From assembly GCA_036387235.1 (NCBI GenBank), contig DASVUD010000028.1, positions 3,129 to 27,128 on the forward strand: a stretch of DNA of 24,000 bases. Reading direction: 5' to 3'. Below, piece after piece: positions 6,472-23,045 of the stretch. This DNA is from Pyrinomonadaceae bacterium (GTDB lineage Bacteria; Acidobacteriota; Blastocatellia; Pyrinomonadales; Pyrinomonadaceae). Each line of letters starts with the position of its first letter. The first letter of the stretch is position 1. The position numbers and the translations under genes were made by a program. The notes beneath the pieces were generated by a model. The model had not been told where the DNA came from, made no database searches, and saw only the letters and a list, made by a program, of their open reading frames with translations.

Positions 6472-6711
6472 CTATTGATTCTCCTGCATGAAAAATGCGC
6501 CCGCTTTGTAGGTGTCGATGAACCGGCGCGCCTTATTGATTCGTCTAAAATGGCCTGAAAATTAGGAATTGTGGGGGCGTCCGTCGAAAGCTCTGAACAC
6601 AGCTTTTTTTGAACTACCTTCAGATGCCGCCGCGACGCCCAAAAGATGTACGCCCGCGCGATATTTTTCGGATTTTTGGCGGCTTTTTGCGCGTGCGGCG
6701 AGGGGCGCGAA

Positions 6712-9504
6712 TCAGCGTAGATTCTGCCCGATCTGCTCCGTGCCGAACGTGCCGATGCCGTTTAAGCGGAAACTGAAGACGACGCGGTTTTCTTTGCGCA
6801 GGCCGATGTTGAAGAACGAGTCTTGCAGCGTGACGGCGCAGCAATCCCAGGCGTAGCCGACCGTGACGGTCGAACTGACGAGCGGCGAGTTTTTGCCCGG
6901 CCGGTTCTGGAAGTCGAAGAAGACGCCCGCGCCGCCGAACAGCCCGCGCTCGCGGTTGCCGAGGAAAATGTATGGGCTCCATTGCGCGCCGCGCAACGTC
7001 CCCGCCTCTTTGCCGCGCGCGTCCGCAAATTGACGCAAGCTCGGCGCGAGCGAGATGGCGCGCGTGTAGTAGAAAGTCTGAAACGCCTGCACGAGCCGTC
7101 GATTGATGCCGAAGCTGACGGACAGGTCGCGCACTCCGCCGCCCTGCACGTCGAGGTTGGTGCGCACGTCGGCCGTCAGGTTCGGGTGCGGGCGATAGCG
7201 CGCCTCGATGTTGATGGGCGAGAAGCGGCGCGGCACGCCTCCGTAGGTGAACCCGGAGAAAGTGTTGATCGGATAGAACTGGTTGCGCCTTCCGGCAACG
7301 AGCGCGCCGCCGAAATACGGGTCGAAGAAATACTTGCCGCGCACCGTGATCGACAGCACCTCTTCGGGACGACTCGACACGGGCAGGAGCGACGACCTGC
7401 CGCCGTTCTTCCCTCGCCCGCTCGCACCGCCGTTCGCCACGCTATCGCCCGCCGCGTCGTCTGTGGCATTGACGGTGCGCGGCGTCTTGCCGCTCACGTT
7501 CTCGGTCGAGTGGCGCGTGAAGAAGCGGTTGGAGATGCCGTACTCGATCTCGTTCGTGTCGGCGATGGCGTCGGTCGAGTCGAAGCGGATGATGCGCGGA
7601 AAATTGTTGATGCCCGTGATCTTCCGGTAGATGATGTAAGGCTCGATGACGTGACGAAAGCGCAGAGAGTCGTCGCCGCGATAAAAGTTGCGCGCGAGCG
7701 CCGGAGGCCGCACGTCGAAACTCAGGTTGGCGTAGGCGCGCGACACGTCGCGGCCGAGCACGAGACGCGTCAGCGGATCGATGGAGTTGGAATAGTAAGT
7801 GCCGCGCAGGGCGGCCGTCGCCGTCGCCGACCAGCCGCGAAAGTAGACGGGGACGGCGAAGGTCGGGGTCACGTCGAGACGCTGCACGACCGAAGGCGTG
7901 ATGACGGGTTCGCCGTCCGCCTCTAAGCGAAACTGCGCGAGGTTTTCCACCGTCTCCTTGCGGCTCACGCCTTCGAGCGCGCCGTCGAACGAGAAATAGA
8001 CGGCCAGACGTTCAAAGTAACTGAGAGGCGAAGGGCGCTTCTGCAATTCGATGCTCGGCAAATTGCGGATGCGGATGCGCGCGTTCGGCAAAGACGTGAC
8101 TTGATTGCGCGCGAGAAAATTGAAGCTGTAGTCGCCCGCGTTTTTGTTGATGAAGACCTGCGAGCGTTCTTCGGGCGAGATGGCCTGCTGGATGTTGTCG
8201 GAGAAGACCTGCCGGAAGGCCAGATTGGAAGTGATGTTGATGTCGGCGGCGGCGAGAAAACCGTTCGGGAAATAATGCACGCCGTCCACGTAGAAACTCG
8301 ACCCGCCCTGATCCGGTCGCTCCGCAGATTCCTTTCCGCCGAAGATGCGATCCTTGACGGTGTAGAAACCGAGATTGAAATAGGAGCGCGAGTTGGCGCG
8401 CGTGCGCAGGTCTGCGCCGAAGCCGAGGCCGCGCCGCGTGAAGATGTCGTTTCTGAGCGTCACGTCGGCCGAGCGTCCGAGCGTCTGGTAGTAGGCGTTC
8501 GAGAGGCGAAAGCCTTTCTTGCCCGAACCGCTGAAGGTCGGCGTGAGAAAGCCGGACGCGCGGTCGCGTCGCTTGAGCGAGACGGAGACGTAAGGCAGCG
8601 GGATGATCGTGACGCCCTTTACTTTGAACTTCGGATTGCGCGCGCGCACGCGGTCGTTCAGAGTGATCTCGGCACGCTTGGCGGTGAAACTCCACTTCGG
8701 CGTCTCTTCGTCGCAGGCCGTGATCTCGCCGTTGAGGATGACGATGCGATTGGCCGACACCTTCTCGACGCTGTCGGCCGTGAAGTAGATGACCGTGCCG
8801 TCTTCGGTCTGGTTCGTGAAGCCCGTGGAGTTGATGAAGAAGCCGAGCTTGGTGGCGTAGTTGAACTCGGCGCGCGTGCCCGTGATGCGCTGCAACTCGC
8901 CTTGGTCGAAGACGACGTTGCCTTCGGCGACGACGCGGTTCGTCGCCTCGTAGACGGTCAACTTGTCGGCCTGCAAACGAAAGATGCCGATGCGCGCATC
9001 GACGTTCCCTTCGTTGACCACGACGCGCGCGCCCTCCGGCCCCGTCACGGTCTGCTTGTCCGTGTTGATGTCTAAATTTTCGGTCGATTGTCCCTGCGCG
9101 CCGTCGCCCCGGCGCACGGGCAGCCGCGGCCGGATCGGTTGCTCCTGTTGCAGAGGGTTGACGTTCGGCGTGTCCGTGATCGGATTGAGCACCTTGCGCT
9201 CGACCGGGTTCGCCTGTTGCTGCTGTGCGAGCGCGTGCGGCGCAGACGCGCCGTAGAAACACGCGACGAGACAGAGCGAGGCGCACCCCGCCAAGAGGCG
9301 GCGCGCCGTGGAGAGCCGGAGAATTTTGTTGCCGAAGAGGGAACGCAAGAGTGGAGCCGAAAGACCTCCGCCGCCTGAACAACGAGCGCGCGCCTGCCGC
9401 CACTTTCTCGTGCGACCACAGGCGCGCTGCCAAAGCGCGGCGATGCTAACATGCGTCGCCAACGACGGACAAGCAAACAGCCTCTCCGGCGCGTTTCTCG
9501 CCAC
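6712..9504 (-). CDS. lptD: LPS-assembly outer-membrane protein LptD (OstA family)
   Basis: OstA-like N-terminal motifs: ADKLTVYEATNRVVAEGNVVFDQGELQRITG and FTADSVEKVSANRIVILNGEITACD. LptD-type C-terminal barrel region: GFLTPTFSGSGKKGFRLSNAYYQTLGRSADVT.... The stop is secure. The start is uncertain: the maximal ORF begins at 9504, but an in-frame TTG at 9348 would give (M)RSLFGNKILRLSTARRLLAGCASLCLVACFYGASAPHALAQQQ, a much better signal peptide. Confidence 0.9.
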   Translation of the reverse strand: MARNAPERLFACPSLATHVSIAALWQRACGRTRKWRQARARCSGGGGLSAPLLRSLFGNKILRLSTARRLLAGCASLCLVACFYGASAPHALAQQQQANPVERKVLNPITDTPNVNPLQQEQPIRPRLPVRRGDGAQGQSTENLDINTDKQTVTGPEGARVVVNEGNVDARIGIFRLQADKLTVYEATNRVVAEGNVVFDQGELQRITGTRAEFNYATKLGFFINSTGFTNQTEDGTVIYFTADSVEKVSANRIVILNGEITACDEETPKWSFTAKRAEITLNDRVRARNPKFKVKGVTIIPLPYVSVSLKRRDRASGFLTPTFSGSGKKGFRLSNAYYQTLGRSADVTLRNDIFTRRGLGFGADLRTRANSRSYFNLGFYTVKDRIFGGKESAERPDQGGSSFYVDGVHYFPNGFLAAADINITSNLAFRQVFSDNIQQAISPEERSQVFINKNAGDYSFNFLARNQVTSLPNARIRIRNLPSIELQKRPSPLSYFERLAVYFSFDGALEGVSRKETVENLAQFRLEADGEPVITPSVVQRLDVTPTFAVPVYFRGWSATATAALRGTYYSNSIDPLTRLVLGRDVSRAYANLSFDVRPPALARNFYRGDDSLRFRHVIEPYIIYRKITGINNFPRIIRFDSTDAIADTNEIEYGISNRFFTRHSTENVSGKTPRTVNATDDAAGDSVANGGASGRGKNGGRSSLLPVSSRPEEVLSITVRGKYFFDPYFGGALVAGRRNQFYPINTFSGFTYGGVPRRFSPINIEARYRPHPNLTADVRTNLDVQGGGVRDLSVSFGINRRLVQAFQTFYYTRAISLAPSLRQFADARGKEAGTLRGAQWSPYIFLGNRERGLFGGAGVFFDFQNRPGKNSPLVSSTVTVGYAWDCCAVTLQDSFFNIGLRKENRVVFSFRLNGIGTFGTEQIGQNLR

Positions 9505-9622
9505 ACCGAACGGCTCACGCGTCGCCCCTTAACCAGAGTTTATGTTGTTGCACGACGACCGTGGGTGTACTATTCAGCCTTACCCTGCACTAACCTAAAG
9601 TGTGCAACTCTTCGAGGCCGTG

Positions 9623-10399: not shown

Positions 10400-10400
10400 T

Positions 10401-11372
10401 TCACCCCGCGCGCCGCGCGTCGTCCGCGCCGATCCGGAAACGACGGCACAGGTCGCGTGCGGCCGCAGGCCAAGTGGGGAAGCGAAACTCGAACCCGCTC
10501 TCCAAGAGTCTCGCGGGCACGACGCGCCGGCTCTTGAGCACGAGTTCCGTTTCGCTGCGCATCAGGAACGCGCCCGCACTGAGCATCAGGCGCGTCGCCG
10601 GAAGACCGATGGGCATGCCCCACGCCTCGCGCAACGCGCGCATGAACTCCGCGTTCGTGACGGGGTTCGGCGCGGCGAGGTTGATCGCCCCTACTAGTTC
10701 CTCGTGCTCGATGAGCCACTCGACCGCGCGCACGAAATCTTCATCGTGAATCCAAGAGACGTACTGCCGCCCGTCGCCGGATTGCCCGCCGAGTCCGAAA
10801 CGCACGAGCCTGAGCAAAGTGTCGAACGCGCCGCCCCGGTCGGGACTCATGATCACGGCCGCGCGGAGTTTCAACTTTCGCGTCCCGGGCGTCGGCGCTT
10901 CGTCAACGGCGCGCTCCCAAGCGGTCGCCACGTCAATACTGAAACGCCAAGAGGCGGGCGCGTCCGGTTCCGTGCCGCCGATGATGCCCGTCGTCTCGTC
11001 GTTCGGCGCGTCGAAGCGGTGCGCGTAGATGGTGGCGGTGCTCATCTGTAACCAGACGCGCGGCGGGTGCACGGCACGCGCGATTGCCTCGCCCACGACG
11101 CGCGCCGAGTTGACGCGCGACTCCAAGATGGCGCGCCGGTTCGCCTCGTTGTAGCGACAGTTCACGCTGCGCCCGGCCAGATTGATGACCGCATGCGCGC
11201 CCTCCAGCTCCGACGCCCAAGGCCCCAACGTCTCCGCGTCCCACCGGACGACGCGCCAAGCCGCGCGCTGAGGGCTGCGACTCAAGACCACGACCTCGTG
11301 CCCGCCTTCCCGCAAGGCACGCGCCAGCACCGTCCCGACCTGCCCCGTCCCGCCCGGCAACACGATCTTCAT
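10401..11372 (-). CDS. NAD-dependent epimerase/dehydratase-family protein with DUF1731 C-terminus (TIGR01777 / YfcH-like SDR)
   Basis: N-terminal Rossmann motif MKIVLPGGTGQVGTVL. The motifs INLAG, YVSWIHDEDFVRAV and the C-terminal ...PARLLESGFEFRFP are typical of the YfcH/SDR39U1 group. Strong SD (GGGAGGTGG) 5-8 nt upstream of ATG 11372. Confidence 0.9.
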   Translation of the reverse strand: MKIVLPGGTGQVGTVLARALREGGHEVVVLSRSPQRAAWRVVRWDAETLGPWASELEGAHAVINLAGRSVNCRYNEANRRAILESRVNSARVVGEAIARAVHPPRVWLQMSTATIYAHRFDAPNDETTGIIGGTEPDAPASWRFSIDVATAWERAVDEAPTPGTRKLKLRAAVIMSPDRGGAFDTLLRLVRFGLGGQSGDGRQYVSWIHDEDFVRAVEWLIEHEELVGAINLAAPNPVTNAEFMRALREAWGMPIGLPATRLMLSAGAFLMRSETELVLKSRRVVPARLLESGFEFRFPTWPAAARDLCRRFRIGADDARRAG

Positions 11373-11410: not shown

Positions 11411-11478
11411 CGCGTGATAATAGCAACTCCCGCTCGCCCCCTGTCGCACGCCTGCGCGGCAGTTGCTATTATCGCGCG
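11411..11478. promoter_or_regulatory. 23-nt inverted repeat (13-bp perfect core) in the divergent epimerase/lpxB control region
   Basis: Left arm cgcgtgataatagcaactcccgc (11411..11433) and right arm gcggcagttgctattatcgcgcg (11456..11478) are reverse complements with 2 mismatches. The perfect core is gataatagcaact (11416..11428) with agttgctattatc (11461..11473). Each arm carries GATAAT on its outward-reading strand. The right arm ends 2 nt before ATG 11481. Confidence 0.55.
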
Positions 11479-11480
11479 CG

Positions 11481-12689
11481 ATGCGGAGAGAGACGGAGGG
11501 AAATCTGCGTTTGATGATCGTGGCGGGCGAGGCTTCGGGCGACGCGCACGCAGCCTCGCTCGTGCGGGCTTTGCGCGAGCGCGCGCCGGGCGTGACGTTC
11601 GAGTTTTTCGGCGCGACGGGGCGCGAGATGCGCGCCGCCGGAGTCGAGTCCATCGTCGAGACGGACGACCTCTCGATCACCGGCCTGATGGAGATCGGCG
11701 GCGCGCTCAAACAGTTCTGGCGCGCCTATCAAAAGCTCAAACGCGCCGGACGGGAGCGCGCGCCCGACGCCGTCGTCCTCGTCGATTGGCCTGACTTCAA
11801 CTTGCGCCTCGCGCGTTTCTTCCGCCGCCAAGGCGTCCGCGCCATCTATTACATCAGCCCGCAACTCTGGGCTTGGCGCGAACACCGCACGCGCAACATC
11901 CGGCGCGACGTAGACCTCCTGCTCGCCATCTTGCCCTTCGAGCCCGCTTGGTACGCCGCGCGCGGCATCTCGCACGTCGAGTTCACCGGACACCCTCTGA
12001 CCGGCGAAGTGCGCGCGCGCTACGACCGCGCCGAGTTTTGCCGCCGCCACGCGCTCGACCCCGCGCGCCCCTTGCTCGCGCTTCTGCCCGGCAGTCGCCG
12101 CAAAGAACTCTTGCGCATCCTCCCGCACATGATCGACGCGGCGCAACGCATTCAAGACGCTCGCCCCGGCGCGCAGTTCGTCGTCGCGCTTGCGCCCAAC
12201 CGTGCAACCGAAGAGGCGCGGTCGATTGTGGACGCTGTAACGCTCGACGCAGATCACACAGACCTCGCGCGCGCCATCCGCATCACCCGACACGAGACGC
12301 GCGAAGCGCTCGGCGCGGCGGACGCGGCGGCCGTCGCCAGCGGCACGGCCACGCTCGAAGCCGCGCTGCTTGAAACGCCGCTCGTCGTCGTCTACAAAGA
12401 ATCCTTCATCAACTGGCACACGCTCGGCCGTCTCATCAAGACGGAACACTTCGGTCTCGTCAACCTCATCGCGGGCGAACGCCTCGCCCCGGAACTCATG
12501 CAGAACGACTTCACAGGCGACACGCTCGCCGCCGAACTACTGAAACTCTTAGACCCCGCGCAGAACGCCGAGACGCGCCGACGCCTTCGCGCCGCCACCC
12601 GGACGCTCGGCGCGGGCGGCGCTTCCCGTCGCGCCGCCGAAGTTATTCTTCAAGCTGTTCAGAAGTGGAAAAAAGAGCAGCCGGATTAG
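11481..12689 (+). CDS. lpxB: Lipid-A-disaccharide synthase LpxB
   Basis: LRLMIVAGEASGDAHAASLVRAL, DWPDFNLRLA, YYISPQLWAWR and GTATLEAALLETPLVVVYK match the LpxB (GT19) pattern. The start is ambiguous: listed TTG 11463, ATG 11481, or ATG 11514. The last has GGAGG 12 nt upstream and gives MIVAGEASGD. Confidence 0.9.
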   Translation: MRRETEGNLRLMIVAGEASGDAHAASLVRALRERAPGVTFEFFGATGREMRAAGVESIVETDDLSITGLMEIGGALKQFWRAYQKLKRAGRERAPDAVVLVDWPDFNLRLARFFRRQGVRAIYYISPQLWAWREHRTRNIRRDVDLLLAILPFEPAWYAARGISHVEFTGHPLTGEVRARYDRAEFCRRHALDPARPLLALLPGSRRKELLRILPHMIDAAQRIQDARPGAQFVVALAPNRATEEARSIVDAVTLDADHTDLARAIRITRHETREALGAADAAAVASGTATLEAALLETPLVVVYKESFINWHTLGRLIKTEHFGLVNLIAGERLAPELMQNDFTGDTLAAELLKLLDPAQNAETRRRLRAATRTLGAGGASRRAAEVILQAVQKWKKEQPD

Positions 12690-12881: not shown

Positions 12882-13997
12882 CTAGTCGTTGCTCGTTTCC
12901 GTATCGGTCGTTTTCGCGTTCGCGCTCTCGTCAAGGCGCGCCGTCAGCTCCCGCACCTGTCGCTTGAGTTCGTCGATCTCCGCGCGCATCTGCGGCAGCC
13001 GACCGAAATGTGCGTTCAAGCGTTTGTACTCATCTAGTGGACGCACGGGCACGCCCCACACGACCGTGCCCGCGCGCACGATCTTGCCCGGCAGTATCCC
13101 CGCCTTCGACCCGACGACGGCTCCCGCCTCCACGCGCGCATGATCGCCCATCCCGACCTGTCCACCGATCACCGCGTCCGACCCGACCACGGTGCTGCCC
13201 GAAATTCCCGTCTGCGCCGCGATCACGACGCGCTCGCCGATCTCCACGTTGTGGCCGACGTGCACGAGATTATCGAGTTTCGTCCCGCGCCCGATGCGCG
13301 TCTCTCCGAGCGCGCCGCGATCCACGCACGAGTTCGCGCCGATCTCCACGTCGTCCTCGATGACGACCGTGCCCACCTGCGGAAATTTGTGATAGCCGTC
13401 ACGCCCGCGCACGTATCCGAACCCGTCCGCCCCGACAACGACGCCCGCGTGCAACACGACCCGACTCCCCACACGCACGCCCTCGTACAACACCACGTTC
13501 GGATGCAGCACGCACTCCGCGCCGACCTCCACGCCCTCTCCGATAACTGTGCCCGCCAACAATTGTGTCCCCCGCCCGACCCGCGCGCCTTCGCCGACCA
13601 CCGCGTGCGCGCCGATGTAGACATCTTCCTCCACCCGTGCCGCCTCGGCCACCGACGCCGTCGGATGGATTTCACCGGCTCGCCGTCTCCGCGCATGCAA
13701 CACCTCCGCCACGAGCGCGAACGCCAACTTCGGCCGCGCCACCTCGACGAGCGTCGCCGCAAACTCGCCCGCCGTCTCCCCCACGCCTTCCGGCACGAGC
13801 AGGCACGACGCGCGGCTCGCCCTCGCCCCTTCCAAAAATTTCCCTTCCTCGACGAAACTGACCGCCCCCGCGTCCGCCGCCTCAAGGCTCGCCACGCGCT
13901 CGATCAAAACTCCCTCGCCGTCGCTCCCGACCACACGCCCACCCGCAAGCGCGGCCAACTCCGCGACCGTCATCCGTCGTCTGTTTTCATTGTCCAT
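12882..13997 (-). CDS. lpxD: UDP-3-O-acylglucosamine N-acyltransferase LpxD
   Basis: N-terminal domain ([19 protein letters not shown]...[23 protein letters not shown]) followed by a long left-handed beta-helix of hexapeptide repeats and a C-terminal helix. The true start may be the second ATG at 13973 (MTVAELA...). There is an extra coiled-coil/acidic tail: ...[32 protein letters not shown]. Confidence 0.95.
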
Positions 13998-14042: not shown

Positions 14043-14123
14043 CATTTCAGTCTTCGCCCGTCTCTTCACCATTTCAGCCTTCGTTCGTCTCTGCAACATC
14101 TCAGTCTTCATTCGTCTCTTCCA
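14043..14123. repeat. Three tandem 27-nt direct repeats spanning the lpxA stop and the lpxA-lpxD spacer
   Basis: R1 catttcagtcttcgcccgtctcttcac (14043..14069), R2 catttcagccttcgttcgtctctgcaa (14070..14096), R3 catctcagtcttcattcgtctcttcca (14097..14123). Identity is about 80 percent and the units are contiguous with no spacers. Confidence 0.85.
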
Positions 14124-14910
14124 CGCCACGGCGCGCGCTTCTCTCTTCGCGCGAAAAACCGCGCCGCGAGCCGCGTATGAAATTTGCCAGATGCCGCGCG
14201 TGCTCGTCGTCCATCTGCTCCAGACGCGCGAGCGCATCCGCGAGCGGCAGACGCGCGCGAAACAGAAGTTGATAAGCGCGTCGCAAGGCCAGCCTCGACG
14301 CGGGCGCGAACCCCGCGCGCCGCAAGCCCACCGTGTTCAAACCGCGCACGCGCGCCGGATTCCCGTCCGTCGTAAAGTACGGCAACACGTCCTGCACGAT
14401 CTTCGACTTCCCCCCGACCATCGCATAACGCCCCATCCGCACGAACTGGTGCGCCCCCACGTTGGAAGACAAAAACACGTGATCCTCTACGTGGATGTGC
14501 CCGGCCAGCGCCACGCCGTTCGCAAAGATGTTGTCGTCTCCCACCACGCAGTTGTGCGCGATGTGCACGCCCACCATCAAAAAGTTCCGACTCCCCACGC
14601 GCGTCTCCGCGCCCTCGCCGCTCGCGCGATGCAGCGTCGCCCCCTCTCGGATCAAGTTGTCGTCCCCCACCAACAGACGGCTCGCCTCGCCCCGAAACTT
14701 CACGTCCTGCGGCTCGCCCCCCAAAGTCGCGTGCTCAAAAACCCTGTTGCGCGCCCCCAGCACCGTGTAACGCTTCACGACCGCATGCGCCCCGATCTCG
14801 CACCCCTCGCCAATCGACACGTCATCCTCAATCAGCGCATACGCCCCCACACGCACGCCCGCGCCCAACTCCGCGCGCGGACTGACCACCGCTGTCCGAT
14901 GAATTTCCAT
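14101..14910 (-). CDS. lpxA: Acyl-ACP--UDP-N-acetylglucosamine O-acyltransferase LpxA
   Basis: MEIHRTAVVSPRAELGAGVRVGAYALIEDDVSIGEGCEIGAHAVV..., VGDDNLIREGATLHR, HIAHNCVVGDDNIFANGVALAGHIHVEDHVFL, HQFVRMGRYAMVGG and GLNTVGLRRAGF are colinear with E. coli LpxA as I remember it. The short C-terminal extension (REERSARRGVEETNED) is encoded by repeat R3. Confidence 0.95.
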   Translation of the reverse strand: MEIHRTAVVSPRAELGAGVRVGAYALIEDDVSIGEGCEIGAHAVVKRYTVLGARNRVFEHATLGGEPQDVKFRGEASRLLVGDDNLIREGATLHRASGEGAETRVGSRNFLMVGVHIAHNCVVGDDNIFANGVALAGHIHVEDHVFLSSNVGAHQFVRMGRYAMVGGKSKIVQDVLPYFTTDGNPARVRGLNTVGLRRAGFAPASRLALRRAYQLLFRARLPLADALARLEQMDDEHARHLANFIRGSRRGFSREERSARRGVEETNED

Positions 14911-14927
14911 AAGACTTTTCGACCAGA

Positions 14928-15112
14928 CTGTTCGACGCGCAAACTTTACTTGAGAGCCTCAACACCCGACTGTACACGAGAGCCTCAACGCCCGACTTCA
15001 CCTGACAGCTTCGACGCGCCAACGTACCCGAACATTCCGACGCGCGACTTTGCAACCGGAGCTTCGACGCTTCAATGTATGCCGGAGACTCGACGCGGCG
15101 GATGGTACATCC
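14928..15112. repeat. Degenerate tandem array, 7 units with 26-27 nt period, upstream of lpxA
   Basis: The core (C)TTCGACGCGC / CCTCAACRCCC recurs with CGAC/CAAC at 14933, 14960, 14986, 15012, 15038, 15065 and 15091 (spacings 27, 26, 26, 26, 27, 26). The best pair is gagagcctcaacacccgact (14952..) and gagagcctcaacgcccgact (14978..). Confidence 0.6.
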
Positions 15113-15256: not shown

Positions 15257-15297
15257 GAAGGCCGCCGCGCGTTGGCTGTGCGGCGGCCTTCGTTTTT
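15257..15297 (+). terminator. Strong rho-independent terminator with no annotated gene upstream (orphan)
   Basis: gaaggccgccgc (15257..15268) pairs perfectly with gcggcggccttc (15280..15291), giving a 12-bp GC-rich stem with an 11-nt loop. It is followed by GTTTTT (15292..15297). The U-tract is present only in the + orientation. Confidence 0.75.
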
Positions 15298-15398: not shown

Positions 15399-15427
15399 TT
15401 GTGTTTACGAGAGTATGCCTTTATCAT
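15399..15427 (+). promoter_or_regulatory. Candidate sigma70-type promoter for the radical SAM gene
   Basis: TTGTGT (15399..15404), 17 nt spacer, TATCAT (15422..15427). It lies downstream of the orphan terminator and ~175 nt upstream of GTG 15603. Sequence match only. Confidence 0.35.
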
Positions 15428-15602
15428 AGCGCGTCGTCCGGCGGTCTCCCCGCCCGTTAGCGGCTGCAAGGCCGGGACGATAATTTTGCAGGACGGCCGA
15501 ACTTTAAAAATTGTGCGGCTGTTCCCCGGCTTCAAGCATCTAAGGCAACTTCCAGGCATCGAAGGCGAGCGGGAAAACAACTCTCGGAGGATTACGGTCA
15601 CA

Positions 15603-17576
15603 GTGTTTAGCGATCAATTTCGCCGGAACGAATCGGTGAGAGGCAAATTTAGCGGAGTGCGCAGTTCGGCGCTGATTTCGAATTTATCGAACGCGGCGTG
15701 GAAGGTGTTTCAGTCCGTCAACCGCGCTCTCCCGGAAGGCGAGGCGATTCGGCCGCAGTGGGCTCCGGGGCCGCTCCTCAAATCTTATGAGAAGACCGCG
15801 CCGCCGCTCGGCTTCCCGCGCGAAACCGACTCGCTTTGTCCCACCTGCGTCAAAGAAGTGCGCGAGGCGGTCATCTCCGGCCAGACGCCGCTCGAAACCT
15901 TGATGCACGAGCATCCGGGCGAGATCAAGGCGCAGATCGTCGAAGAGGACGGGCGCATCGTGATGCGCAAGACTTGCGCCAAGCACGGTGAGTTCGTCGA
16001 TGTGATGGCGACCAGCCCCGACTTTTTACGACGCATCGAGTCGCTTTTCTACGGGCGCGATTTCCGCACGGCCGAAGACGCGCACGTCCATCGACACGGC
16101 ACGTCCGACATCAAGTACGGACGCGGCGCGGTGCTCACGGTTGACCTGACGAACCGCTGCAACATGATGTGCAACCCGTGCTTCATGGACGCCAATCAGG
16201 TCGGCTACGTGCACGAACCGACCTTCGAGGACACGAAAGCCATCCTCGACCGCGCCGTCTCCTTTAAGCCGAAGCGGCAGGTCATCATTCTCTTCTCCGG
16301 CGGCGAGCCTACTCTGTCGCCCTACTACCTCGAAGCCGTCGCCTACGCCAAGAAGATCGGCTTCTACCGTATCCTCGCCGCCACGAACGGCATCCGCTTC
16401 GCCGAAGACATAGAGTTCTGCCGGCAGGCGAAAGAGGCCGGGCAACACGGCGTCTATCTGCAATTCGACGGCGTCAGCGAAGAGAAGAACAAGCACCGCG
16501 GCGTCGGCAATCTCTTCGACGTGAAGCAGAAGGCCATCGAGAATTTGGCCGAGGTCGGCATCAAGGTCACGCTCGTGACGACCATCGTCAACACGATCAA
16601 TAACGACGCCATCGGCCAGATCGTCGAGTTCGCCGCGAAGAACATCGACAAGATTCAGACCATCGCCTTCCAGCCCGTCTCCTTCACGGGACGCGACGAA
16701 GACGTGCCCGACGACGTGCGCATCCAGCAGCGTTACACGCTCGCCGACATGGCGACCGATCTGGAAAAGCAACTCGGCGGCGACTTGAAAGCCCTGCGCG
16801 ATTGGTTTCCGCTCTCATCCTATTCGGCCTTCACTTCCGTGATGGACATGCTGCAAGGCGCGGACGCCCCGTGGGGCTGGTCTAGTTGCAACTGTCATCC
16901 GAACTGCGGCGTCTTCACTTTGATGGTCGTCAATCGACACACGGGCGCGTGGACGCCGCTCTTCAAGTTCTTCAACTACGAGCAGTTCATGCGCGACGTG
17001 GCCGTCATCACGGACACGGCGCGCGGCGCGAAACTCTCGATGGCGCAGCTTGCCATGACCATCATGCGCAACTACGACGCCCGGCGCGCGCCCGAGGGTT
17101 TCCCCATCTCGCAGATCATCAACCTCTTCAAGCCCAGTTCGACCAACTCGAACTCGGATCGCAACGACCGCATGAAGACGCAAGCATCTTCGGAAGACCC
17201 GAACGATGCTTGGCGCGTGCTCTGCGTCGAGGGCATGTGGTTCCAAGACCTCTTCAACTACGACTTCCGCCGCACCGAAATGTGCGTCATCCCTTACGGC
17301 ACGCAGGAAGGCGAAATCTCCTTCTGCGCTTACAACACGGGCGTCGGCTGGCGGCAGATCATCGAGAACATGCACAAGACGGCGGGACTCGCCGAGTGGT
17401 ACAAAGAGCACGGTCGCCATCCTGTCTACGCGGCGGGCAAGGAAGTGCCCGGTATCCCACGCAAGCATTCGCTCTCGCTCCCCATCGTGCAGGCCATCCT
17501 CGCCGAAGACGCGGACGCGCCGCCCGTCAAGGTCACGCCGTATCTTGTCGAAGAAAAGGAAGAAGCGGTCGTCTAA
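15603..17576 (+). CDS. Radical SAM enzyme, tetraether-lipid-synthase (Tes / GDGT-MAS, MJ0619-family)-like, ~657 aa
   Basis: Radical SAM motif LTNRCNMMCNPCF (CxxxCxxC) and SAM-binding FSGGEPTL. N-terminal Cys module SLCPTC...(IVEEDGRIVMRK)TCAKHGEF. Large C-terminal extension with Cys motifs SSCNCHPNCG, EMCVIPYG and ISFCAYN. I prefer GTG 15603 (GGAGG at 15586..15590) to the listed 15399, whose extra 68 aa cross a promoter-like AT-rich stretch. There is no in-frame ATG before the CPTC motif. Confidence 0.9.
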   Translation: MFSDQFRRNESVRGKFSGVRSSALISNLSNAAWKVFQSVNRALPEGEAIRPQWAPGPLLKSYEKTAPPLGFPRETDSLCPTCVKEVREAVISGQTPLETLMHEHPGEIKAQIVEEDGRIVMRKTCAKHGEFVDVMATSPDFLRRIESLFYGRDFRTAEDAHVHRHGTSDIKYGRGAVLTVDLTNRCNMMCNPCFMDANQVGYVHEPTFEDTKAILDRAVSFKPKRQVIILFSGGEPTLSPYYLEAVAYAKKIGFYRILAATNGIRFAEDIEFCRQAKEAGQHGVYLQFDGVSEEKNKHRGVGNLFDVKQKAIENLAEVGIKVTLVTTIVNTINNDAIGQIVEFAAKNIDKIQTIAFQPVSFTGRDEDVPDDVRIQQRYTLADMATDLEKQLGGDLKALRDWFPLSSYSAFTSVMDMLQGADAPWGWSSCNCHPNCGVFTLMVVNRHTGAWTPLFKFFNYEQFMRDVAVITDTARGAKLSMAQLAMTIMRNYDARRAPEGFPISQIINLFKPSSTNSNSDRNDRMKTQASSEDPNDAWRVLCVEGMWFQDLFNYDFRRTEMCVIPYGTQEGEISFCAYNTGVGWRQIIENMHKTAGLAEWYKEHGRHPVYAAGKEVPGIPRKHSLSLPIVQAILAEDADAPPVKVTPYLVEEKEEAVV

Positions 17577-17697: not shown

Positions 17698-18225
17698 ATG
17701 TCCAGAATAAGATTCGCGCTTTTACTTTGTCTCGTCGCAAGCGTGTCTGTGGCCACAACCGCCCAGACCAAACCGGAAAAGAATTATAAGAACAAGTACC
17801 AGAACATAGAGGTCACGCGTTTCGACGTGGCGGCGGGCAACGAAGTGCCGCCCGAATACCTCGACGAACTGGCGAAGGACGTTGCCAACCAGTTAAGGGA
17901 CACCAAGAAATTCAAGCAGGTCATTCGCGCCGGCGAGACCGCTCCGGTCGCCGCCGACCCGGCCGCCTCGACGCTGCGTCTGACCGGCACGATCACGAAA
18001 TTCAAAAAGGGCAGCCGCGCCAAGCGTTACCTCGTCGGCTTCGGCGCGGGTGCGACCAAGATGATCGTGCACGTCAAATTTGCGGATGCCTCGACCGGAG
18101 AAGTTTTATTTGAAGACGACGTGGACGGAAAGGTCTTTATCGGACTTTTCGGCGGCGATTCGAAGGGGGCGACTAACGGGGTGGCTAAAGATATCGGCAA
18201 AGTGGCCAAGAAGGAATTCTTCTAA
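17698..18225 (+). CDS. Small secreted protein, 175 aa (DUF4410-like by recollection, low certainty)
   Basis: ATG 17698 with GGAG ~9 nt upstream. Signal peptide MSRIRFALLLCLVASVSVATTAQT. The mature part is Lys-rich, with ...GSRAKRYLVGFGAGATKMIVHVKF.... The listed start at 17206 adds an Arg/Ser-rich shadow overlapping the radical SAM gene. Confidence 0.85.
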   Translation: MSRIRFALLLCLVASVSVATTAQTKPEKNYKNKYQNIEVTRFDVAAGNEVPPEYLDELAKDVANQLRDTKKFKQVIRAGETAPVAADPAASTLRLTGTITKFKKGSRAKRYLVGFGAGATKMIVHVKFADASTGEVLFEDDVDGKVFIGLFGGDSKGATNGVAKDIGKVAKKEFF

Positions 18226-18281: not shown

Positions 18282-18355
18282 TGGGAGGTGGTGAAATGGT
18301 ATCACACCTGACTCTGGATCAGGCTTTCGGGGTTCGAGTCCCTGCCTCCCAGCCA
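18282..18355 (+). tRNA. tRNA-Gln (anticodon CTG), CCA encoded
   Basis: Manual cloverleaf, 74 nt in total. Acceptor tgggagg/cctccca (U1-A72, as in bacterial tRNA-Gln). D arm gtga-aatggta-tcac. Anticodon arm cctga-ctCTGga-tcagg. Variable loop cttt. T arm cgggg-ttcgagt-ccctg. Discriminator G plus CCA. Confidence 0.92.
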
Positions 18356-18396: not shown

Positions 18397-18437
18397 AGAT
18401 CAGGTAGCCACTCTCCGGCTACCTGATCTCTTTTTTA
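18397..18437 (+). terminator. Rho-independent terminator after tRNA-Gln
   Basis: agatcaggtagcc (18397..18409), loop actctcc, ggctacctgatct (18417..18429): a 13-bp perfect stem followed by CTTTTTT (18430..18436). Confidence 0.85.
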
Positions 18438-18671: not shown

Positions 18672-20093
18672 GTGGTGGCTGAGCAACCAACGGTAATGAA
18701 ATTCGGCGGCACGTCCGTCGAGGACGCGCGTGCGTACTCGCGTGTGGCGCGCATCATCTCGGAGCGTCGCGCCGAACGCCCGGTCGTGGTCGTCTCCGCG
18801 ATGAGCCGCGTGACCGACGCGCTGCTCGAATCGGTCGAGCTGGCCGCGACGACCGGCGACGCCGACGCCGCGCTTCGTTCGCTCGAACCGCACTTCGAGC
18901 GGCACACGCAGGTCGCGCGCCTGCTGCCCGCGGGCGGGCGCGACGAGCTGTTTTTGGAACTCGAACTCGCGCGGCGCGAACTCGACGCGCTGCTCGCGCG
19001 CGTCACCGCGAACACCGAGCCGCGTGCGGCCTTACAAGATTCAATCGTCGCTTACGGCGAATGTCTCTCGGCCAAGTTGCTCGCGGCCGTACTCGCCGAG
19101 CGCATGTTGCCCTCCGCTTACGTGGACGCGCGCCGCTGCATCATCACGGACGACGCGCACGGCGCGGCCACGCCCGCCAATGATGAGACCTACGAACGCA
19201 CGCGCGCCGAACTCTCGCCGCTTCTGGCCGATGGGCGCATCCCCGTTCTCGGCGGCTACATCGGCGCGACCCCGGACGGCCGCACGACCACGCTCGGGCG
19301 CGGCGGCTCCGATTACACGGCCGGGCTGGTCGGCGCTAGCCTCGGCGCGCGCGAGATTCAAATTTGGACTGACGTGAACGGCGTCTTGACCGCAGACCCG
19401 CGCGTCGTCTCGAACGCCCGCACCATCCCCAGCCTCTCCTTTGCCGAAGCGGCCGAACTCGCCTACTTCGGCGCGAAGGTGCTTCACCCGAAGACGATCC
19501 TTCCGGCCATCGTGCGCGGCGTCCCCGTCCGTATCTGCAACTCGCGCGAACCGGAACAGGCGGGCACGGGCGTCTATTTCGACGCGGAGATGTCGCCGCG
19601 CACGGTCAAAGCCATCGCGCACAAAAAAGGCGTCACGGTCTTGCACATCACCTCCGCGCGCATGCTCGGCGCGTACGGTTTCCTGCGCGCGCTCTTTGCG
19701 GTCTTCGAGCGCCATCGCACGATCATCGACATCGTCACCACTTCGGAAGTCTCCGTCTCGCTCTCGCTCGAAGACGCGAGCCGCGTCGAAGAGATCATCC
19801 GCGACTTGAAACCCATCGCGGCCGTCAAGGTCGAATCCGGGCTGGCCGTCGTCTGCATCGTCGGGCAAGACTTGCGCTACACGTCCGGCGTCGCCGCGCG
19901 CGTGTTCAGCACACTCTGCGACATCAACATCCTGCTCATCTCGCAGGGCGCGTCGAACGTCAACCTCACCTTCGTCGTGGCTGAGGGGGATGTGGAAGAG
20001 ACCGTCAGGCGGCTGCACGCCTCTCTGTTCGAGTGCGACACGCAGGAACTGGCGCCGCTCTTTCAACGCAAGAAGGAGGGCGTCTCCGGTTGA
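18672..20093 (+). CDS. lysC: Aspartate kinase (monofunctional class)
   Basis: VMKFGGTSVEDA, VVVVSAMSRVTDAL, GRGGSDYTA, WTDVNGVLTADPR, FAEAAELAYFGAKVLHP, then two ACT-like regulatory repeats. The start is either GTG 18672 or ATG 18696 (MKFGGTSV). Confidence 0.95.
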   Translation: MVAEQPTVMKFGGTSVEDARAYSRVARIISERRAERPVVVVSAMSRVTDALLESVELAATTGDADAALRSLEPHFERHTQVARLLPAGGRDELFLELELARRELDALLARVTANTEPRAALQDSIVAYGECLSAKLLAAVLAERMLPSAYVDARRCIITDDAHGAATPANDETYERTRAELSPLLADGRIPVLGGYIGATPDGRTTTLGRGGSDYTAGLVGASLGAREIQIWTDVNGVLTADPRVVSNARTIPSLSFAEAAELAYFGAKVLHPKTILPAIVRGVPVRICNSREPEQAGTGVYFDAEMSPRTVKAIAHKKGVTVLHITSARMLGAYGFLRALFAVFERHRTIIDIVTTSEVSVSLSLEDASRVEEIIRDLKPIAAVKVESGLAVVCIVGQDLRYTSGVAARVFSTLCDINILLISQGASNVNLTFVVAEGDVEETVRRLHASLFECDTQELAPLFQRKKEGVSG

Positions 20094-21238
20094 ACCTCTT
20101 CGCACTCACGCGCCGTCTGATAGACATCCCCTCGCCGAGCGGCGACGAACTGGAGGCCGCGCGCTTCCTTGCCTCGTATCTCGAAAGTCTGGACTACCGG
20201 GTCGAGCTTCAAGAAGTCGCCCCCGGCCGCCCGAACGTCATCGCCACCGCAACGCCTCGGCCGCGCCTCTTCTTCTCCACGCACATCGATACAGTGCCGC
20301 CTGTCGTTCCTTCCGACGAAGACGACGCGCACATCTACGGGCGCGGCGCGTGCGACGCCAAAGGCATCATCGCCGCGCAAATCTTCGCCGCCGAACGCTT
20401 GCGCGCCGAGGGCACGCGTGACATCGGCCTGCTCTTTACGGTCGATGAAGAACTCGGCAGCCTCGGCGCGCGTGCCGCCAACTCGCACCCGCTCGCCGAG
20501 GGTTGCGCCTATCTCATCAACGGCGAGCCGACCGACAACAAACTCGCCGCCGGCTCAAAAGGCTCCCTGCGCCTGCGCTTGACGACCACGGGGCGCGCCG
20601 CTCATTCGGCTTATCCCGAACACGGCGACTCGGCCGTCGAACGCTTGCTCGACGTGCTCGCCGACATACGTCAAACCAATTGGCCGGCCGACGACTTCTT
20701 CGGCCAGACCACCTGCAACATCGGCACTATCACAGGCGGCACGCGCCCCAACATCATCCCGGCCGAAGCCGAGGCGCAACTGCAAATCCGTCTCGTCACG
20801 GAATCCACTCGCATCAAAGCGGAACTCGAACGCGCCGTCCGCGGCCGCGCCGAAATCGAATATTTGTCCGTCGCCGAACCGGTGCGCCTTTACGCGCCCG
20901 CAGGCTTCGCGAGCGAAGTCGTGCGTTTCACCACCGACATTCCTTATCTGCCGAACTGGGGCACGCCCCTCCTGCTCGGCCCCGGCTCGATTCTCCACGC
21001 GCACACCGACCATGAGCGCATCCGCAAAGACGAACTCTCCGAGGCAGTTGAACTCTACGCGCGCCTCGCCGCCTCGCTTCTCTCAAGCGACGACGCGCGA
21101 ACCGGCGAGACGAACGACACGCGGAGCGTAGTTGATGTTGCGCCCGAAGCGGCACACCAAACACACGACGCGCCGGACGGCGACAGAGCCGCCACGGCGA
21201 ACGGGATGACGACGACGGAAGGAGTCGGTTTCAAGTGA
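20090..21238 (+). CDS. M20-family metallohydrolase (ArgE/DapE family), probable N-succinyl-diaminopimelate desuccinylase by context
   Basis: STHIDTVPP, GRGACDAKG, VDEELGSLG, INGEPT and GRAAHSAYPEHGDSAV are M20 metal-binding and catalytic motifs. I prefer TTG 20090, which overlaps the lysC stop (TTGA) and gives MNLFALTRRLIDIPSPSGDE, to the listed 20033. It carries a ~50-aa low-complexity tail (SSDDARTGETNDTRS...TTTEGVGFK). Confidence 0.85.
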   Translation: MNLFALTRRLIDIPSPSGDELEAARFLASYLESLDYRVELQEVAPGRPNVIATATPRPRLFFSTHIDTVPPVVPSDEDDAHIYGRGACDAKGIIAAQIFAAERLRAEGTRDIGLLFTVDEELGSLGARAANSHPLAEGCAYLINGEPTDNKLAAGSKGSLRLRLTTTGRAAHSAYPEHGDSAVERLLDVLADIRQTNWPADDFFGQTTCNIGTITGGTRPNIIPAEAEAQLQIRLVTESTRIKAELERAVRGRAEIEYLSVAEPVRLYAPAGFASEVVRFTTDIPYLPNWGTPLLLGPGSILHAHTDHERIRKDELSEAVELYARLAASLLSSDDARTGETNDTRSVVDVAPEAAHQTHDAPDGDRAATANGMTTTEGVGFK

Positions 21239-21948
21239 AACTCGCCATCATCGGCAATGGCGCGATGGGCAAGCTCGTCCGCGCGCTGGCCGAAGCGGAA
21301 GGCCACGAAATCGGGCGCATCCTGACTTCCGAGGACGCCGGGCGCAGCGCCGTCGAACTGGCCGAACTGCTCGGCGGCCACGATGCGGCCATAGATTTTT
21401 CCGTCTCCGGCGCGGTGCTCAAAAACGTCGAAGCGGCAGCGCGCGCGGGCGTCCCGCTTGTCGAAGGCACGACCGGCTGGAACGCACATGAAGCGGAAGC
21501 GCGCCGCATCGTCGAAGCACACGCGGCGGGCGCGCTTCTGTTCGGCGCAAACTTCTCCATCGGCGTCAATCTCTTCTACCGCATCGTCGCGCGCGCGGCC
21601 GAACTGTTCGCCGCCACCGATTACGCACCCTTCATCGAAGAAGCGCACCACGCGCGCAAACGCGACGCGCCTTCGGGGACGGCCATCAAACTGCGCGACC
21701 TGCTGGCCGCGCAGATCGCGCGCGACATCCCCGTCGTCTCGACGCGCGCCGGGCACATTCCCGGCACGCACCGCGTCGGCTTCGACTCGGCCGCCGACCA
21801 GATTACCCTGACGCACACGGCGCGCACCCGCGAGGGCTTCGCCTCCGGCGCGCTTCTCGCCGCCCGCTGGCTCAAGGACAGACGCGGCGTCTACGAATTT
21901 TCCGAGGCAATGGATGAAATAATAAAAGACGTGAATCGTGAATCGTAA
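21235..21948 (+). CDS. dapB: 4-hydroxy-tetrahydrodipicolinate reductase DapB
   Basis: MKLAIIGNGAMGK (Rossmann fold), VEGTTGW, IEEAHHARKRDAPSGTA and HTARTREGFASGALLAARWL. The GTG start overlaps the upstream stop (GTGA). The last 5 codons and the TAA lie inside hairpin element B. Confidence 0.95.
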   Translation: MKLAIIGNGAMGKLVRALAEAEGHEIGRILTSEDAGRSAVELAELLGGHDAAIDFSVSGAVLKNVEAAARAGVPLVEGTTGWNAHEAEARRIVEAHAAGALLFGANFSIGVNLFYRIVARAAELFAATDYAPFIEEAHHARKRDAPSGTAIKLRDLLAAQIARDIPVVSTRAGHIPGTHRVGFDSAADQITLTHTARTREGFASGALLAARWLKDRRGVYEFSEAMDEIIKDVNRES

Positions 21949-22006
21949 ATCGTGAATAGATTTAAAACTGCTTTCTTCTATTCACGATTGACGATTTACG
22001 ATTTAC
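21931..22006 (+). repeat. Palindromic heptamer-repeat hairpin element, copy B (dapB-dapA junction)
   Basis: Left arm gtgaatc gtgaatc gtaaatc gtgaata ga (21931..21960) pairs with the right arm 21977..22006: 27 Watson-Crick pairs, 2 G-U pairs and 1 A-G mismatch. The loop is tttaaaactgctttct. The right arm is nearly identical to that of copy A. Confidence 0.8.
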
Positions 22007-22024
22007 GAAAGTTGAGGTTGAAGG

Positions 22025-22936: not shown

Positions 22937-22947
22937 ACGGGAGACCG

Positions 22948-23018
22948 GTAAATAGTGAATGGTAAATGGTGAATGGTGAAAAAACAGTCTTCTACCATTT
23001 ACCATTCACCACTTTTAC
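22948..23018 (+). repeat. Palindromic heptamer-repeat hairpin element, copy C (dapA-dapD junction), GGTRAAT variant
   Basis: gtgaatggtaaatggt (22955..22970) pairs perfectly with accatttaccattcac (22994..23009). An outer gtaaa (22948..22952) / tttac (23014..23018) helix lies beyond a small internal loop. The apical loop is gaatggtgaaaaaacagtcttct. Confidence 0.7.
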
Positions 23019-23045
23019 TTCATCGTTTTTCATTAAGGGACTTTG

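Follow-up and report, generated by a model that had tools for sequence, protein, structure and literature searches.

The tes-like gene is a single intact open reading frame (ORF) located at 15603..17576 on the + strand of a 24,000-nucleotide stretch of DNA from a Pyrinomonadaceae bacterium (Acidobacteriota; GenBank assembly GCA_036387235.1, contig DASVUD010000028.1, positions 3,129 to 27,128). We refer to this whole stretch as the window. The gene encodes a radical SAM (S-adenosylmethionine) protein of 657 residues that is homologous to the archaeal enzyme GDGT-MAS/Tes (MJ0619, MA_1486; structures 7TOL and 7TOM) and belongs to a clade without the N-terminal auxiliary cluster of that enzyme. 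Its start codon is GTG at 15603, and the ribosome-binding site GGAGG can be read from the sequence 10 nt before it (15588..15592, + strand); an AGGAG-type motif is kept before the start codon in related loci. The product is identical from end to end to a database protein, P0001, whose 90%-identity cluster holds 94 members, and because of this full-length identity the gene call is right. A sequence-only reading of the same DNA had proposed this ORF as a candidate bacterial synthase of membrane-spanning lipids. The coordinates that it chose are those of a true gene, and the motifs that it quoted are all present in the ORF: CNMMCNPC (C186/C190/C193), GGEPTL (residues 233-238), SLCPTC (C79/C82), SSCNCHPNCG (C429/C431/C435), EMCVIPYG (C561), and ISFCAYN (C575). 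A further motif, KTCAKHGEF, supplies C125 and H128.

Family, fold and metal sites

In Pfam the 657-residue protein matches Radical_SAM (PF04055, E 4.5e-22) and Zn_ribbon_HMPTM (PF23545, E 3.8e-14), and no SPASM domain is matched. The best NCBIfam model is Tes (NF045702), with 320.7 bits and an E-value of 1.5e-95 over model positions 2-483 of 486. The models next in rank are the TrsS (seleno)protein (NF045646; 212 bits, core only) and NirJ1 (97 bits); the protein is thus neither a SPASM maturase nor an HpnH-type or cofactor enzyme. TrsS shares with residues 107-397 of the window protein the zinc-ribbon/rubredoxin end and the radical SAM core, but the match covers positions 13-301 of the 441 in the model and ends before the C-terminal domain, and its score lies far below its own cut-off of 490 and also below the score of Tes. 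The only strong sequence match in the PDB is GDGT-MAS itself (7TOL, E 5.2e-69, residues 108-603), while the matches to SkfB and PqqE are restricted to the radical SAM core. MJ0619 and the window protein share 31% identity over 506 residues. An AlphaFold2 (AF2) model was built on a 60-sequence alignment and has a mean predicted local distance difference test (pLDDT) score of 81.9 and a predicted template modelling (pTM) score of 0.84. In a Foldseek comparison with the PDB this model matches 7TOM and 7TOL at E 1e-39, with target-normalised TM (template modelling) scores of 0.87-0.88 and root-mean-square deviations of 3.2-3.3 Å, and the next match is MoaA with a TM score of 0.51. The four-domain fold of 7TOL/7TOM is present in the model, the C-terminal cluster/lipid-pocket domain included, and the domain order is the same: rubredoxin-like Fe domain, N-domain, radical SAM 3/4 TIM barrel, and C-terminal cluster/lipid domain. 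By sequence, ligand-by-ligand alignment and predicted fold, the protein is a Tes/GDGT-MAS homologue. The homology put forward by the sequence-only reading is therefore borne out by the profile and PDB comparisons and by the AlphaFold comparison with GDGT-MAS, in which the best homologues are Tes and the Cys motifs align.

GDGT-MAS has four metal sites. Among these are a rubredoxin-like Fe bound by C9, C12, C33, and H36, an N-terminal auxiliary [4Fe-4S] cluster bound by C73, C77, C80, and a His, the radical SAM cluster, and a C-terminal [4Fe-4S] cluster bound by three Cys and the labile Met439, beside the conserved Tyr459; a C-S intermediate forms at the C-terminal cluster, while what the remaining sites do is described as unknown (Lloyd et al., 2022). 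We followed these sites through an alignment in which 32 full-length representatives of 50%-identity clusters stood beside the window protein and MJ0619, whose residues 16-495 (7TOL chain positions 36-515) were typed by hand from the PDB-match alignment. The same ligand sets are found at the Fe site, at the radical SAM site and at the C-terminal cluster, the labile Met and the Tyr included, and none of the residues linked to the GDGT-MAS coupling mechanism is missing from the window protein.

Starting from the N-terminus, the window protein has about 70 residues more than GDGT-MAS. They include a clade-specific amphipathic helix (residues 19-42; 15657..15728, + strand) which the AF2 model places with a pLDDT of about 87-93. 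The hydrophobic moment of the helix is up to 0.63, its W33 is nearly invariant in the 60-sequence alignment, and it is absent from MJ0619, where the Fe site begins at residue 9. The helix is possibly a membrane-interface anchor. It is followed by the rubredoxin-like mononuclear Fe domain (residues 71-136; 15813..16010, + strand; Pfam PF23545), which is what the sequence-only reading had called an N-terminal Cys module. The predicted Fe ligands C79, C82, C125, and H128 align with C9, C12, C33, and H36 of GDGT-MAS and are invariant in 39 of 39 sequences of subdivisions 4, 6, and 3, although the spacer within the site is longer, with 42 residues against 20 in GDGT-MAS. The radical SAM core (residues 182-344; 16146..16634, + strand; PF04055) carries the CX3CX2C motif (C186, C190, C193) and the SAM-binding motif GGEPT at 233-237, both of which are invariant in 60 of 60 aligned relatives.

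Between these two domains lies a difference from GDGT-MAS which was the main omission of the sequence-only reading. The segment between H128 and C186 (15987..16157, + strand), delimited by Cys counts, the MJ0619 alignment and the numbering of Lloyd et al. (2022), contains no Cys, which can be read directly and does not depend on any alignment, and a Cys-ligated N-terminal cluster is therefore impossible. In the MJ0619 alignment the positions of the N-terminal cluster are occupied by H161, H165, S168, and K171. All 60 clade members have at most two Cys in this segment, whereas almost all canonical representatives have three to six.

The C-terminal auxiliary-cluster/lipid-pocket domain (residues ~425-603; 16875..17411, + strand) is defined by the MJ0619 alignment and the fold match. 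Its predicted cluster consists of C435, C561, and C575 together with M545 (equivalent to Met439), near Y565 (equivalent to Tyr459), and these are invariant in all 39 subdivision 4/6/3 sequences; the three Cys are assigned as ligands from their conservation in all canonical sequences and not from the structure paper. The C-terminal Cys motifs noticed in the sequence-only reading thus align with Tes and supply the predicted ligands of the catalytic C-terminal cluster, [4Fe-4S]C. Two extra Cys that GDGT-MAS lacks, C429 and C431, form part of the motif CxCHPxCG and are likewise invariant in the clade (39/39). The protein ends in a disordered tail of about 50 residues which extends beyond MJ0619.

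Clade, distribution and conservation

When 1.84 billion cluster representatives were searched exhaustively with HMMER, 499 matched at E<=1e-30. In a rough neighbour-joining tree the sequences lacking the N-terminal cluster group together, separately from the canonical Tes-like ones, in a single clade that comprises Pyrinomonadaceae (subdivision 4), Vicinamibacterales, Bryobacteraceae, and a degenerate Terriglobales branch. The canonical bacterial homologues (such as those of Koribacter versatilis and Solibacter usitatus cited by Zeng et al., 2022, and Chen et al., 2022, and P0210 of Phycisphaerae) belong to the same family and have been given the same proposed role, the formation of brGDGTs (branched glycerol dialkyl glycerol tetraethers) or other membrane-spanning lipids, which is equally unproven. 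Nearly all canonical representatives inspected, a set without the Koribacter and Solibacter sequences, keep the CX3CX2C and His of the N-terminal cluster, and they are 27-33% identical to the window protein. One representative of the canonical clade, P0191, has lost the Cys of this cluster independently.

Two grades can be recognized within the clade. The first unites Pyrinomonadaceae with a large group that includes, as its named members, Vicinamibacterales, Bryobacteraceae, and genomes labelled "Acidobacteriota", and here all Fe-site, radical SAM and C-terminal ligands, the Met, the Tyr, C429, and C431 are kept in 14 of 14 Pyrinomonadaceae sequences and in 25 of 25 from the Vicinamibacterales/Bryobacteraceae group. 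The second is of Terriglobales type and contains Terriglobus roseus DSM 18391 (WP_014786616) and metagenome-assembled genomes (MAGs) labelled Terracidiphilus sp. and Acidobacteriaceae bacterium. In this grade C435, C561, and Y565 are mostly lost. The T. roseus protein, which is 46% identical to the window protein in the phmmer match and 44% by BLASTP, has none of the three catalytic C-terminal-cluster Cys, and no other named subdivision 1 isolate occurs among the 120 best matches to it. Its gene (loci L081/L082, 10001-11875) is surrounded by a TrwC relaxase, two tyrosine integrases, a TraG/type IV secretion system coupling protein, a replication protein, and ParA, so that the locus looks like an integrative or plasmid-like mobile element, and another member of the second grade adjoins a DDE transposase. 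We therefore rejected T. roseus as support for a link between this family and the iso-diabolic acid of subdivision 1, since its branch is sporadic, lies on a mobile element and lacks the catalytic-cluster Cys.

The closest full-length relative outside the 50%-identity cluster of the window protein is P0122, a 561-residue protein from a Logan assembly (60% identical by phmmer, 58% by BLASTP). In P0122 the radical SAM CX3CX2C is replaced by the Cys-free stretch NLNKQPDLVAGYP, while the Cys of the Fe site and the C-terminal cluster are kept; the protein is a pseudo-enzyme, unless an error of assembly or a frameshift artefact lies behind its sequence.

In the GTDB species-representative collection at least 585 stretches encode a close relative of the tes-like protein, and the best 80 of these matching stretches were used for the comparison of Pyrinomonadaceae loci. 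Within these 80 the closest relatives are 82-96% identical and all come from Pyrinomonadaceae/Blastocatellia MAGs, which places the window in acidobacterial subdivision 4. Such a level of identity across 80 species-level genomes exceeds that of the adjacent LpxA, LpxD, and LpxB, which is 57-86% in full-length matches, and the stronger conservation within the same loci points to strong purifying selection on the tes-like protein. The tes-like gene is a core gene of Pyrinomonadaceae.

Genomic neighbourhood

A candidate sigma-70-like promoter of the tes-like gene was found by consensus match at 15399..15427 (+ strand), with a -35 element TTGTGT (15399-15404), a 17-nt spacer, and a -10 element TATCAT (15422-15427). 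Its hexamers are invariant in an alignment of four loci. Among 51 sequences (the window and 50 loci), 32 have the pattern CTTGnnTTT...TATCAT upstream of the gene, and TATCAT by itself is present in 45. This promoter would imply a 5' untranslated region (UTR) of about 175 nt. No riboswitch or other structured leader was recognized there: Rfam gives no match at gathering thresholds and chance-level matches only at E<=5, the leader is poorly conserved among related loci, and RNAalifold finds no consensus structure.

The 690-bp spacer between lpxA and the tes-like gene contains two further elements. In its middle lies a strong terminator-like hairpin (15257-15291, + strand), for which the scan counts 15 pairs, with 11 G-C pairs among them. 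Its arms are perfectly complementary over 12 nt and are followed by a T-run; on the + strand upstream of the hairpin there is no gene and no Rfam family. Directly upstream of the lpxA start lies a degenerate tandem array (14912-15100). Here Tandem Repeats Finder (TRF) reports a 26-nt unit present 2.9 times at 14943-15017 (score 87) and a 13-nt unit present 1.9 times at 14912-14936, and weaker copies at 26-nt spacing with a TTCGACGC core extend to ~15096. In L004, a related locus, the array is not conserved.

Upstream of the tes-like gene the window carries genes of lipid A biosynthesis and outer-membrane assembly, as the sequence-only reading had described. lpxA (14101..14910, - strand; Pfam Acetyltransf_11 and Hexapep) is divergent from the tes-like gene and is found in 44 of the 80 loci. 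It is followed by lpxD (12882..13997, - strand; Pfam LpxD and Hexapep; 58/80), lpxB (11463..12689, + strand; Pfam LpxB, E 3.8e-87; 44/80), a gene of the NAD-dependent epimerase family (10401..11372, - strand), and lptD (6712..9504, - strand; Pfam LptD, LptD_2, and LptD_N), the last being seen in 22 of the 80 loci, many of which are too short to reach it. In most Pyrinomonadaceae loci with enough flanking sequence the block lptD(-) lpxB(+) lpxD(-), with or without lpxA(-), lies upstream of and divergent from the tes-like gene. The linkage is loose, and in many loci 2.5-5.6 kb of unrelated genes separate lpxA from the tes-like gene. It is also missing outside Pyrinomonadaceae, where none of the five loci examined (one from a Vicinamibacterales MAG, two from assemblies of that group, one from T. 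roseus, and one from a further MAG of subdivision 1 type) has lpx genes near the homologue. A family-wide association with lpx and lptD was rejected on this ground, and because the linkage is both loose and missing outside Pyrinomonadaceae, we treat it as conserved gene order at the family level and not as functional evidence. The co-organisation with outer-membrane biogenesis suggested by the sequence-only reading is thus a weak inference: the synteny holds in most of the 80 Pyrinomonadaceae loci but is absent around the homologues examined elsewhere, and a conserved promoter-like element belongs to the tes-like gene itself. The locus serves as a caution against taking an lpx neighbourhood as functional evidence.

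Several of the related loci show rearrangements of their own. lpxD lies directly upstream of the tes-like gene, with no full-length lpxA detected in between, in L036, L038, L042-L044, L046, L048, L053, L057, L059, L064, L066, and L079; in several of them (e.g., L044 and L046) the gap of 320-450 nt is too short for lpxA, which must therefore lie elsewhere in those genomes. In L088, a 5.19-Mb Pyrinomonadaceae contig, a defence-system-like pair (a 919-residue nSTAND1/WD40 protein and a SIR2_2 protein, 5434-9463) is placed between lpxA and the tes-like gene. Within 8 kb downstream in the same contig (12324-19993) there are a second small radical SAM gene, a glycosyltransferase similar to monogalactosyldiacylglycerol (MGDG) synthase, and a gene of the diacylglycerol kinase family, the latter two being other lipid genes nearby in that genome.

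Downstream of the tes-like gene the window encodes a DUF4410 secreted protein of 175 residues with a signal peptide (17698..18225, + strand; Pfam PF14366, E 6e-15), which the sequence-only reading had counted as a linked feature. It does not hold as a partner, because it occurs in 2 of the 80 loci and other downstream genes are usual elsewhere. In L006-L080 these usual genes, within 0.2-2 kb, are a secreted protein of about 290 residues, seen in 39 of 60 loci, and, in convergent orientation, a small HisKA-domain protein, seen in 43 of 60; the former matches no Pfam family and has no similarity to the DUF4410 protein of the window. In the window, as in the loci nearest to it (L001-L003), DUF4410 and/or aspartate kinase take this downstream place instead, which indicates a rearrangement in this sub-lineage. 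No conserved partner gene stands beside the tes-like gene, as the downstream genes vary by lineage, and in being a gene alone it also resembles GDGT-MAS/Tes.

The remainder of the window can be summarized briefly. A tRNA-Gln gene with anticodon CTG (18282..18355, + strand) is followed by a terminator-like hairpin of 13 pairs (18397-18429, + strand), ahead of which the tes-like, DUF4410 and tRNA genes all lie on the + strand. Then comes a lysine/diaminopimelate block (18672-23888, + strand) made up of aspartate kinase with an ACT domain (18672-20093), an M20 DapE/ArgE-like peptidase (20033-21238) whose gene overlaps that of the kinase by 61 nt, dapB (21235-21948), dapA (22025-22936), and a dapD-like succinyltransferase (23043-23888). 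At the other end, adjoining lptD, a subtilase of 1255 residues (2704-6471, - strand) combines Peptidase_S8 with a fervidolysin-like prodomain, Calx-beta, and a C-terminal DUF4214, and is partly conserved in two related loci (L053 and L064). Long + strand ORFs without a Pfam family lie at 36-1292 (418 residues) and 1258-1878 (206 residues), and an overlapping pair at 9602-10399 (265 residues) and 9697-10749 (350 residues); some of these may be shadow ORFs in high-GC sequence.

Proposed function and its alternatives

In the GDGT-MAS reaction a saturated phytanyl chain loses a hydrogen atom from its terminal carbon, the radical is held on a sulfide of the C-terminal cluster, and coupling to a second activated chain follows. 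The enzyme also binds bacterial phosphatidic acid with ester-linked chains, and its products are macrocyclic archaeol and glycerol dialkyl glycerol tetraether (GDGT) (Lloyd et al., 2022). The terminal isopropyl group of an iso-fatty acid is structurally identical to the end of a phytanyl tail (Zeng et al., 2022). The host of the window gene differs from the archaeal ones in being a bacterial aerobe with ester- or ether-linked iso-branched lipids on glycerol-3-phosphate, as opposed to isoprenoid diethers on glycerol-1-phosphate, and in the type species of Pyrinomonadaceae, an obligate aerobe, iso-diabolic acid and iso-branched glycerol ethers account for over 40% of the membrane lipid. Acidobacterial Tes homologues were proposed as possible makers of brGDGTs by Zeng et al. 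(2022) and were also discussed in this context by Halamka et al. (2022). A search for Tes homologues in bacterial genomes led to the finding of abundant brGDGTs in Solibacter usitatus, and members of subdivisions 4 and 6 with Tes homologues were suggested as sources of 6-methyl brGDGTs to be examined (Chen et al., 2022). The membrane-spanning-lipid idea hence correctly rediscovers a hypothesis published in 2022 (Zeng et al., 2022; Chen et al., 2022).

In our view the most likely function of the tes-like enzyme, with a probability of roughly 0.55, is the coupling of iso-branched lipid tails to give iso-diabolic-acid or brGDGT-type lipids. We infer the substrate, the product and the dispensability of the lost cluster from the homology, ligands, fold, taxonomy, and conservation found here, combined with the GDGT-MAS chemistry and the Pyrinomonadaceae lipids reported in the literature. 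The protein is probably cytoplasmic and peripheral to the membrane. By analogy with GDGT-MAS, the CX3CX2C [4Fe-4S] cluster would cleave SAM reductively, and the 5'-deoxyadenosyl radical would take a hydrogen atom from the omega carbon of an iso-branched C15/C17 glycerolipid chain held in a hydrophobic tunnel. A sulfide of the C-terminal [4Fe-4S] cluster (C435, C561, C575, and the labile M545) would then hold the substrate radical until a second chain is activated by a second SAM, and a C-C bond would join the two tails. The expected product would be a membrane-spanning lipid of the iso-diabolic-acid type, or an ether or brGDGT-type derivative if ether-forming enzymes act before or after the coupling. 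All this would proceed without the surface-exposed N-terminal auxiliary [4Fe-4S] cluster, with the rubredoxin-like Fe kept and an extra N-terminal amphipathic helix.

A second group of known enzymes has to be kept apart from this family. Mss of Thermotoga maritima and Thermoanaerobacter ethanolicus is also a radical SAM protein and joins two acyl tails to diabolic acids in E. coli (Sahonero-Canavesi et al., 2022), which is the type of reaction proposed here. Its structure reportedly superimposes on that of Tes, yet BLAST does not detect it as a Tes homologue. In the published comparison no Tes homologue was found in T. maritima and no mss homologue in Acidobacteria, so that the inclusion of the Thermotoga synthase among the Tes homologues by the sequence-only reading does not hold. 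According to published descriptions, which set the two apart, Mss has so far been found only in anaerobes and is active only anaerobically.

A number of points weigh against a role of the tes-like enzyme in iso-diabolic acid or brGDGT synthesis. The Tes layout recognized by the sequence-only reading stands for the Fe site, the radical SAM core and the C-terminal cluster, but the N-terminal cluster, [4Fe-4S]N, is lost, and the score of 320.7 bits does not reach the Tes equivalog cut-off of 450, which makes the protein a homologue and not an equivalog in the sense of NCBI. The hosts are aerobes, yet radical SAM chemistry with Fe-S clusters is oxygen-sensitive. All of the best 80 matches are from MAGs, whereas the lipids were measured in cultured strains of subdivision 4. 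Tes homologues were reported in only 3 of 14 genomes of Acidobacteria that produce iso-diabolic acid, and the authors of that count consider another pathway possible. Given the sporadic and mobile character of the subdivision 1 branch and its loss of the catalytic-cluster Cys and the Tyr, at least subdivision 1 makes its iso-diabolic acid with no functional member of this enzyme type, and the other pathway used there could also operate in subdivision 4. Finally, a 2025 paper describes the bacterial Tes homologues as being without experimental confirmation and a 2026 review speaks of bioinformatic detections only, which agrees with the remark in the sequence-only reading that the acidobacterial branch lacks biochemical proof.

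Some of these points feed the alternative that we take most seriously, although we regard it as unlikely: the protein would be a lipid radical SAM enzyme of the Tes family that carries out another reaction, and a different enzyme would make iso-diabolic acid. Candidate reactions include intramolecular macrocyclisation, an H-shaped cross-link between chains, ring formation, and C-S chemistry on a lipid tail. Most Acidobacteria producing iso-diabolic acid reportedly have no Tes homologue, the copies in subdivision 1 are sporadic, degenerate and mobile, and GDGT-MAS itself makes two products; the invariant extra C429 and C431, the lost N-terminal cluster and the score below the equivalog cut-off all leave room for a changed activity. 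Yet every residue of the GDGT-MAS coupling mechanism is kept and invariant, the cross-linking enzyme Gms and the ring-forming GrsA/B belong to other radical SAM families without the rubredoxin domain, and no alternative product has been linked to the clade lacking the N-terminal cluster. Much less probable is a role in the outer membrane, where the enzyme would couple or modify the acyl chains of lipid A precursors or of long-chain lipids bound to the outer membrane. The divergent lpxA-lpxD-lpxB-lptD block upstream in most well-flanked Pyrinomonadaceae loci (lpxD in 58/80) would suit such a role, as would the iso-diabolic acid of subdivisions 1 and 3, which is reportedly released mainly by acid hydrolysis, so that part of it may be bound otherwise than in ordinary phospholipids. 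Against it stand the absence of this synteny from the five loci outside Pyrinomonadaceae, the 2.5-5.6 kb insertions between lpxA and the tes-like gene (such as the nSTAND/SIR2 pair of L088), the divergent transcription with a conserved promoter-like element of its own for the tes-like gene, and the terminator-like hairpin in the 690-bp spacer.

The remaining two alternatives concern the chemistry of quite different substrates, and both are very improbable. The protein matches the NCBIfam models of NirJ, AhbC/D, PqqE, mycofactocin and sactipeptide maturases weakly, and SkfB and PqqE in the PDB, as would be expected of a peptide- or cofactor-maturing enzyme of the SPASM/twitch type; these matches are all confined to the core (residues ~175-395), while in the last 250 residues the alignment is with Tes rather than with SPASM domains, Pfam recognizes no SPASM domain and no conserved small-peptide or partner gene lies alongside. 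On domain and alignment grounds we ruled out the SPASM maturase, HpnH-type and cofactor-enzyme readings. The least credible of all is a 7,8-dihydro-6-hydroxymethylpterin dimethyltransferase, a name that many close relatives carry at JGI and in some NCBI records and that recurs in the name of the Pfam zinc ribbon, all of which goes back to a 2014 assignment for MJ0619. This label, paired with that of a class D radical SAM methylase, survives only in annotations. The active site of MJ0619 is a narrow hydrophobic lipid tunnel, which is unlikely to bind a pterin. Acidobacteria, moreover, are not known to make methanopterin. The methylase activity of MJ0619 was not reproduced by Lloyd et al., and the protein makes macrocyclic archaeol and GDGT instead.

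Returning to the coupling of iso-branched tails as the preferred function, a broader and more tentative proposal can be attached to it, which we hold to be somewhat less probable than the function itself. The clade lacking the N-terminal cluster may represent the iso-diabolic acid and brGDGT synthase of aerobic soil Acidobacteria of subdivisions 3, 4, and 6, in a streamlined form that works with the radical SAM cluster, the C-terminal cluster and the Fe site, and the loss of the surface-exposed auxiliary cluster is possibly an adaptation to oxygen. As features that appear to be undescribed in the papers searched we note this acidobacterial clade with its invariant CxCHPxCG motif and N-terminal helix, its contrast with the degenerate and mobile Terriglobales branch, and the lpx synteny restricted to one family. 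brGDGTs and iso-diabolic acid are among the most used terrestrial biomarkers of palaeotemperature and pH, and Tes homologues are the leading candidate for the acidobacterial enzyme behind their membrane-spanning chain. The Pyrinomonadaceae protein keeps exactly the metal sites of archaeal C-C coupling and has dropped one auxiliary cluster, which makes it a sharper target and a natural test of the need for the N-terminal cluster. The motifs of the clade (a Cys-free stretch from the Fe site to the radical SAM motif, and CxCHPxCG) could serve in metagenomes to sort likely functional copies from the degenerate mobile ones of Terriglobales. If the proposal is true, the gene would become a marker for the producers of the brGDGT palaeoclimate proxy in neutral to alkaline soils, for example for the sources of 6-methyl brGDGTs.

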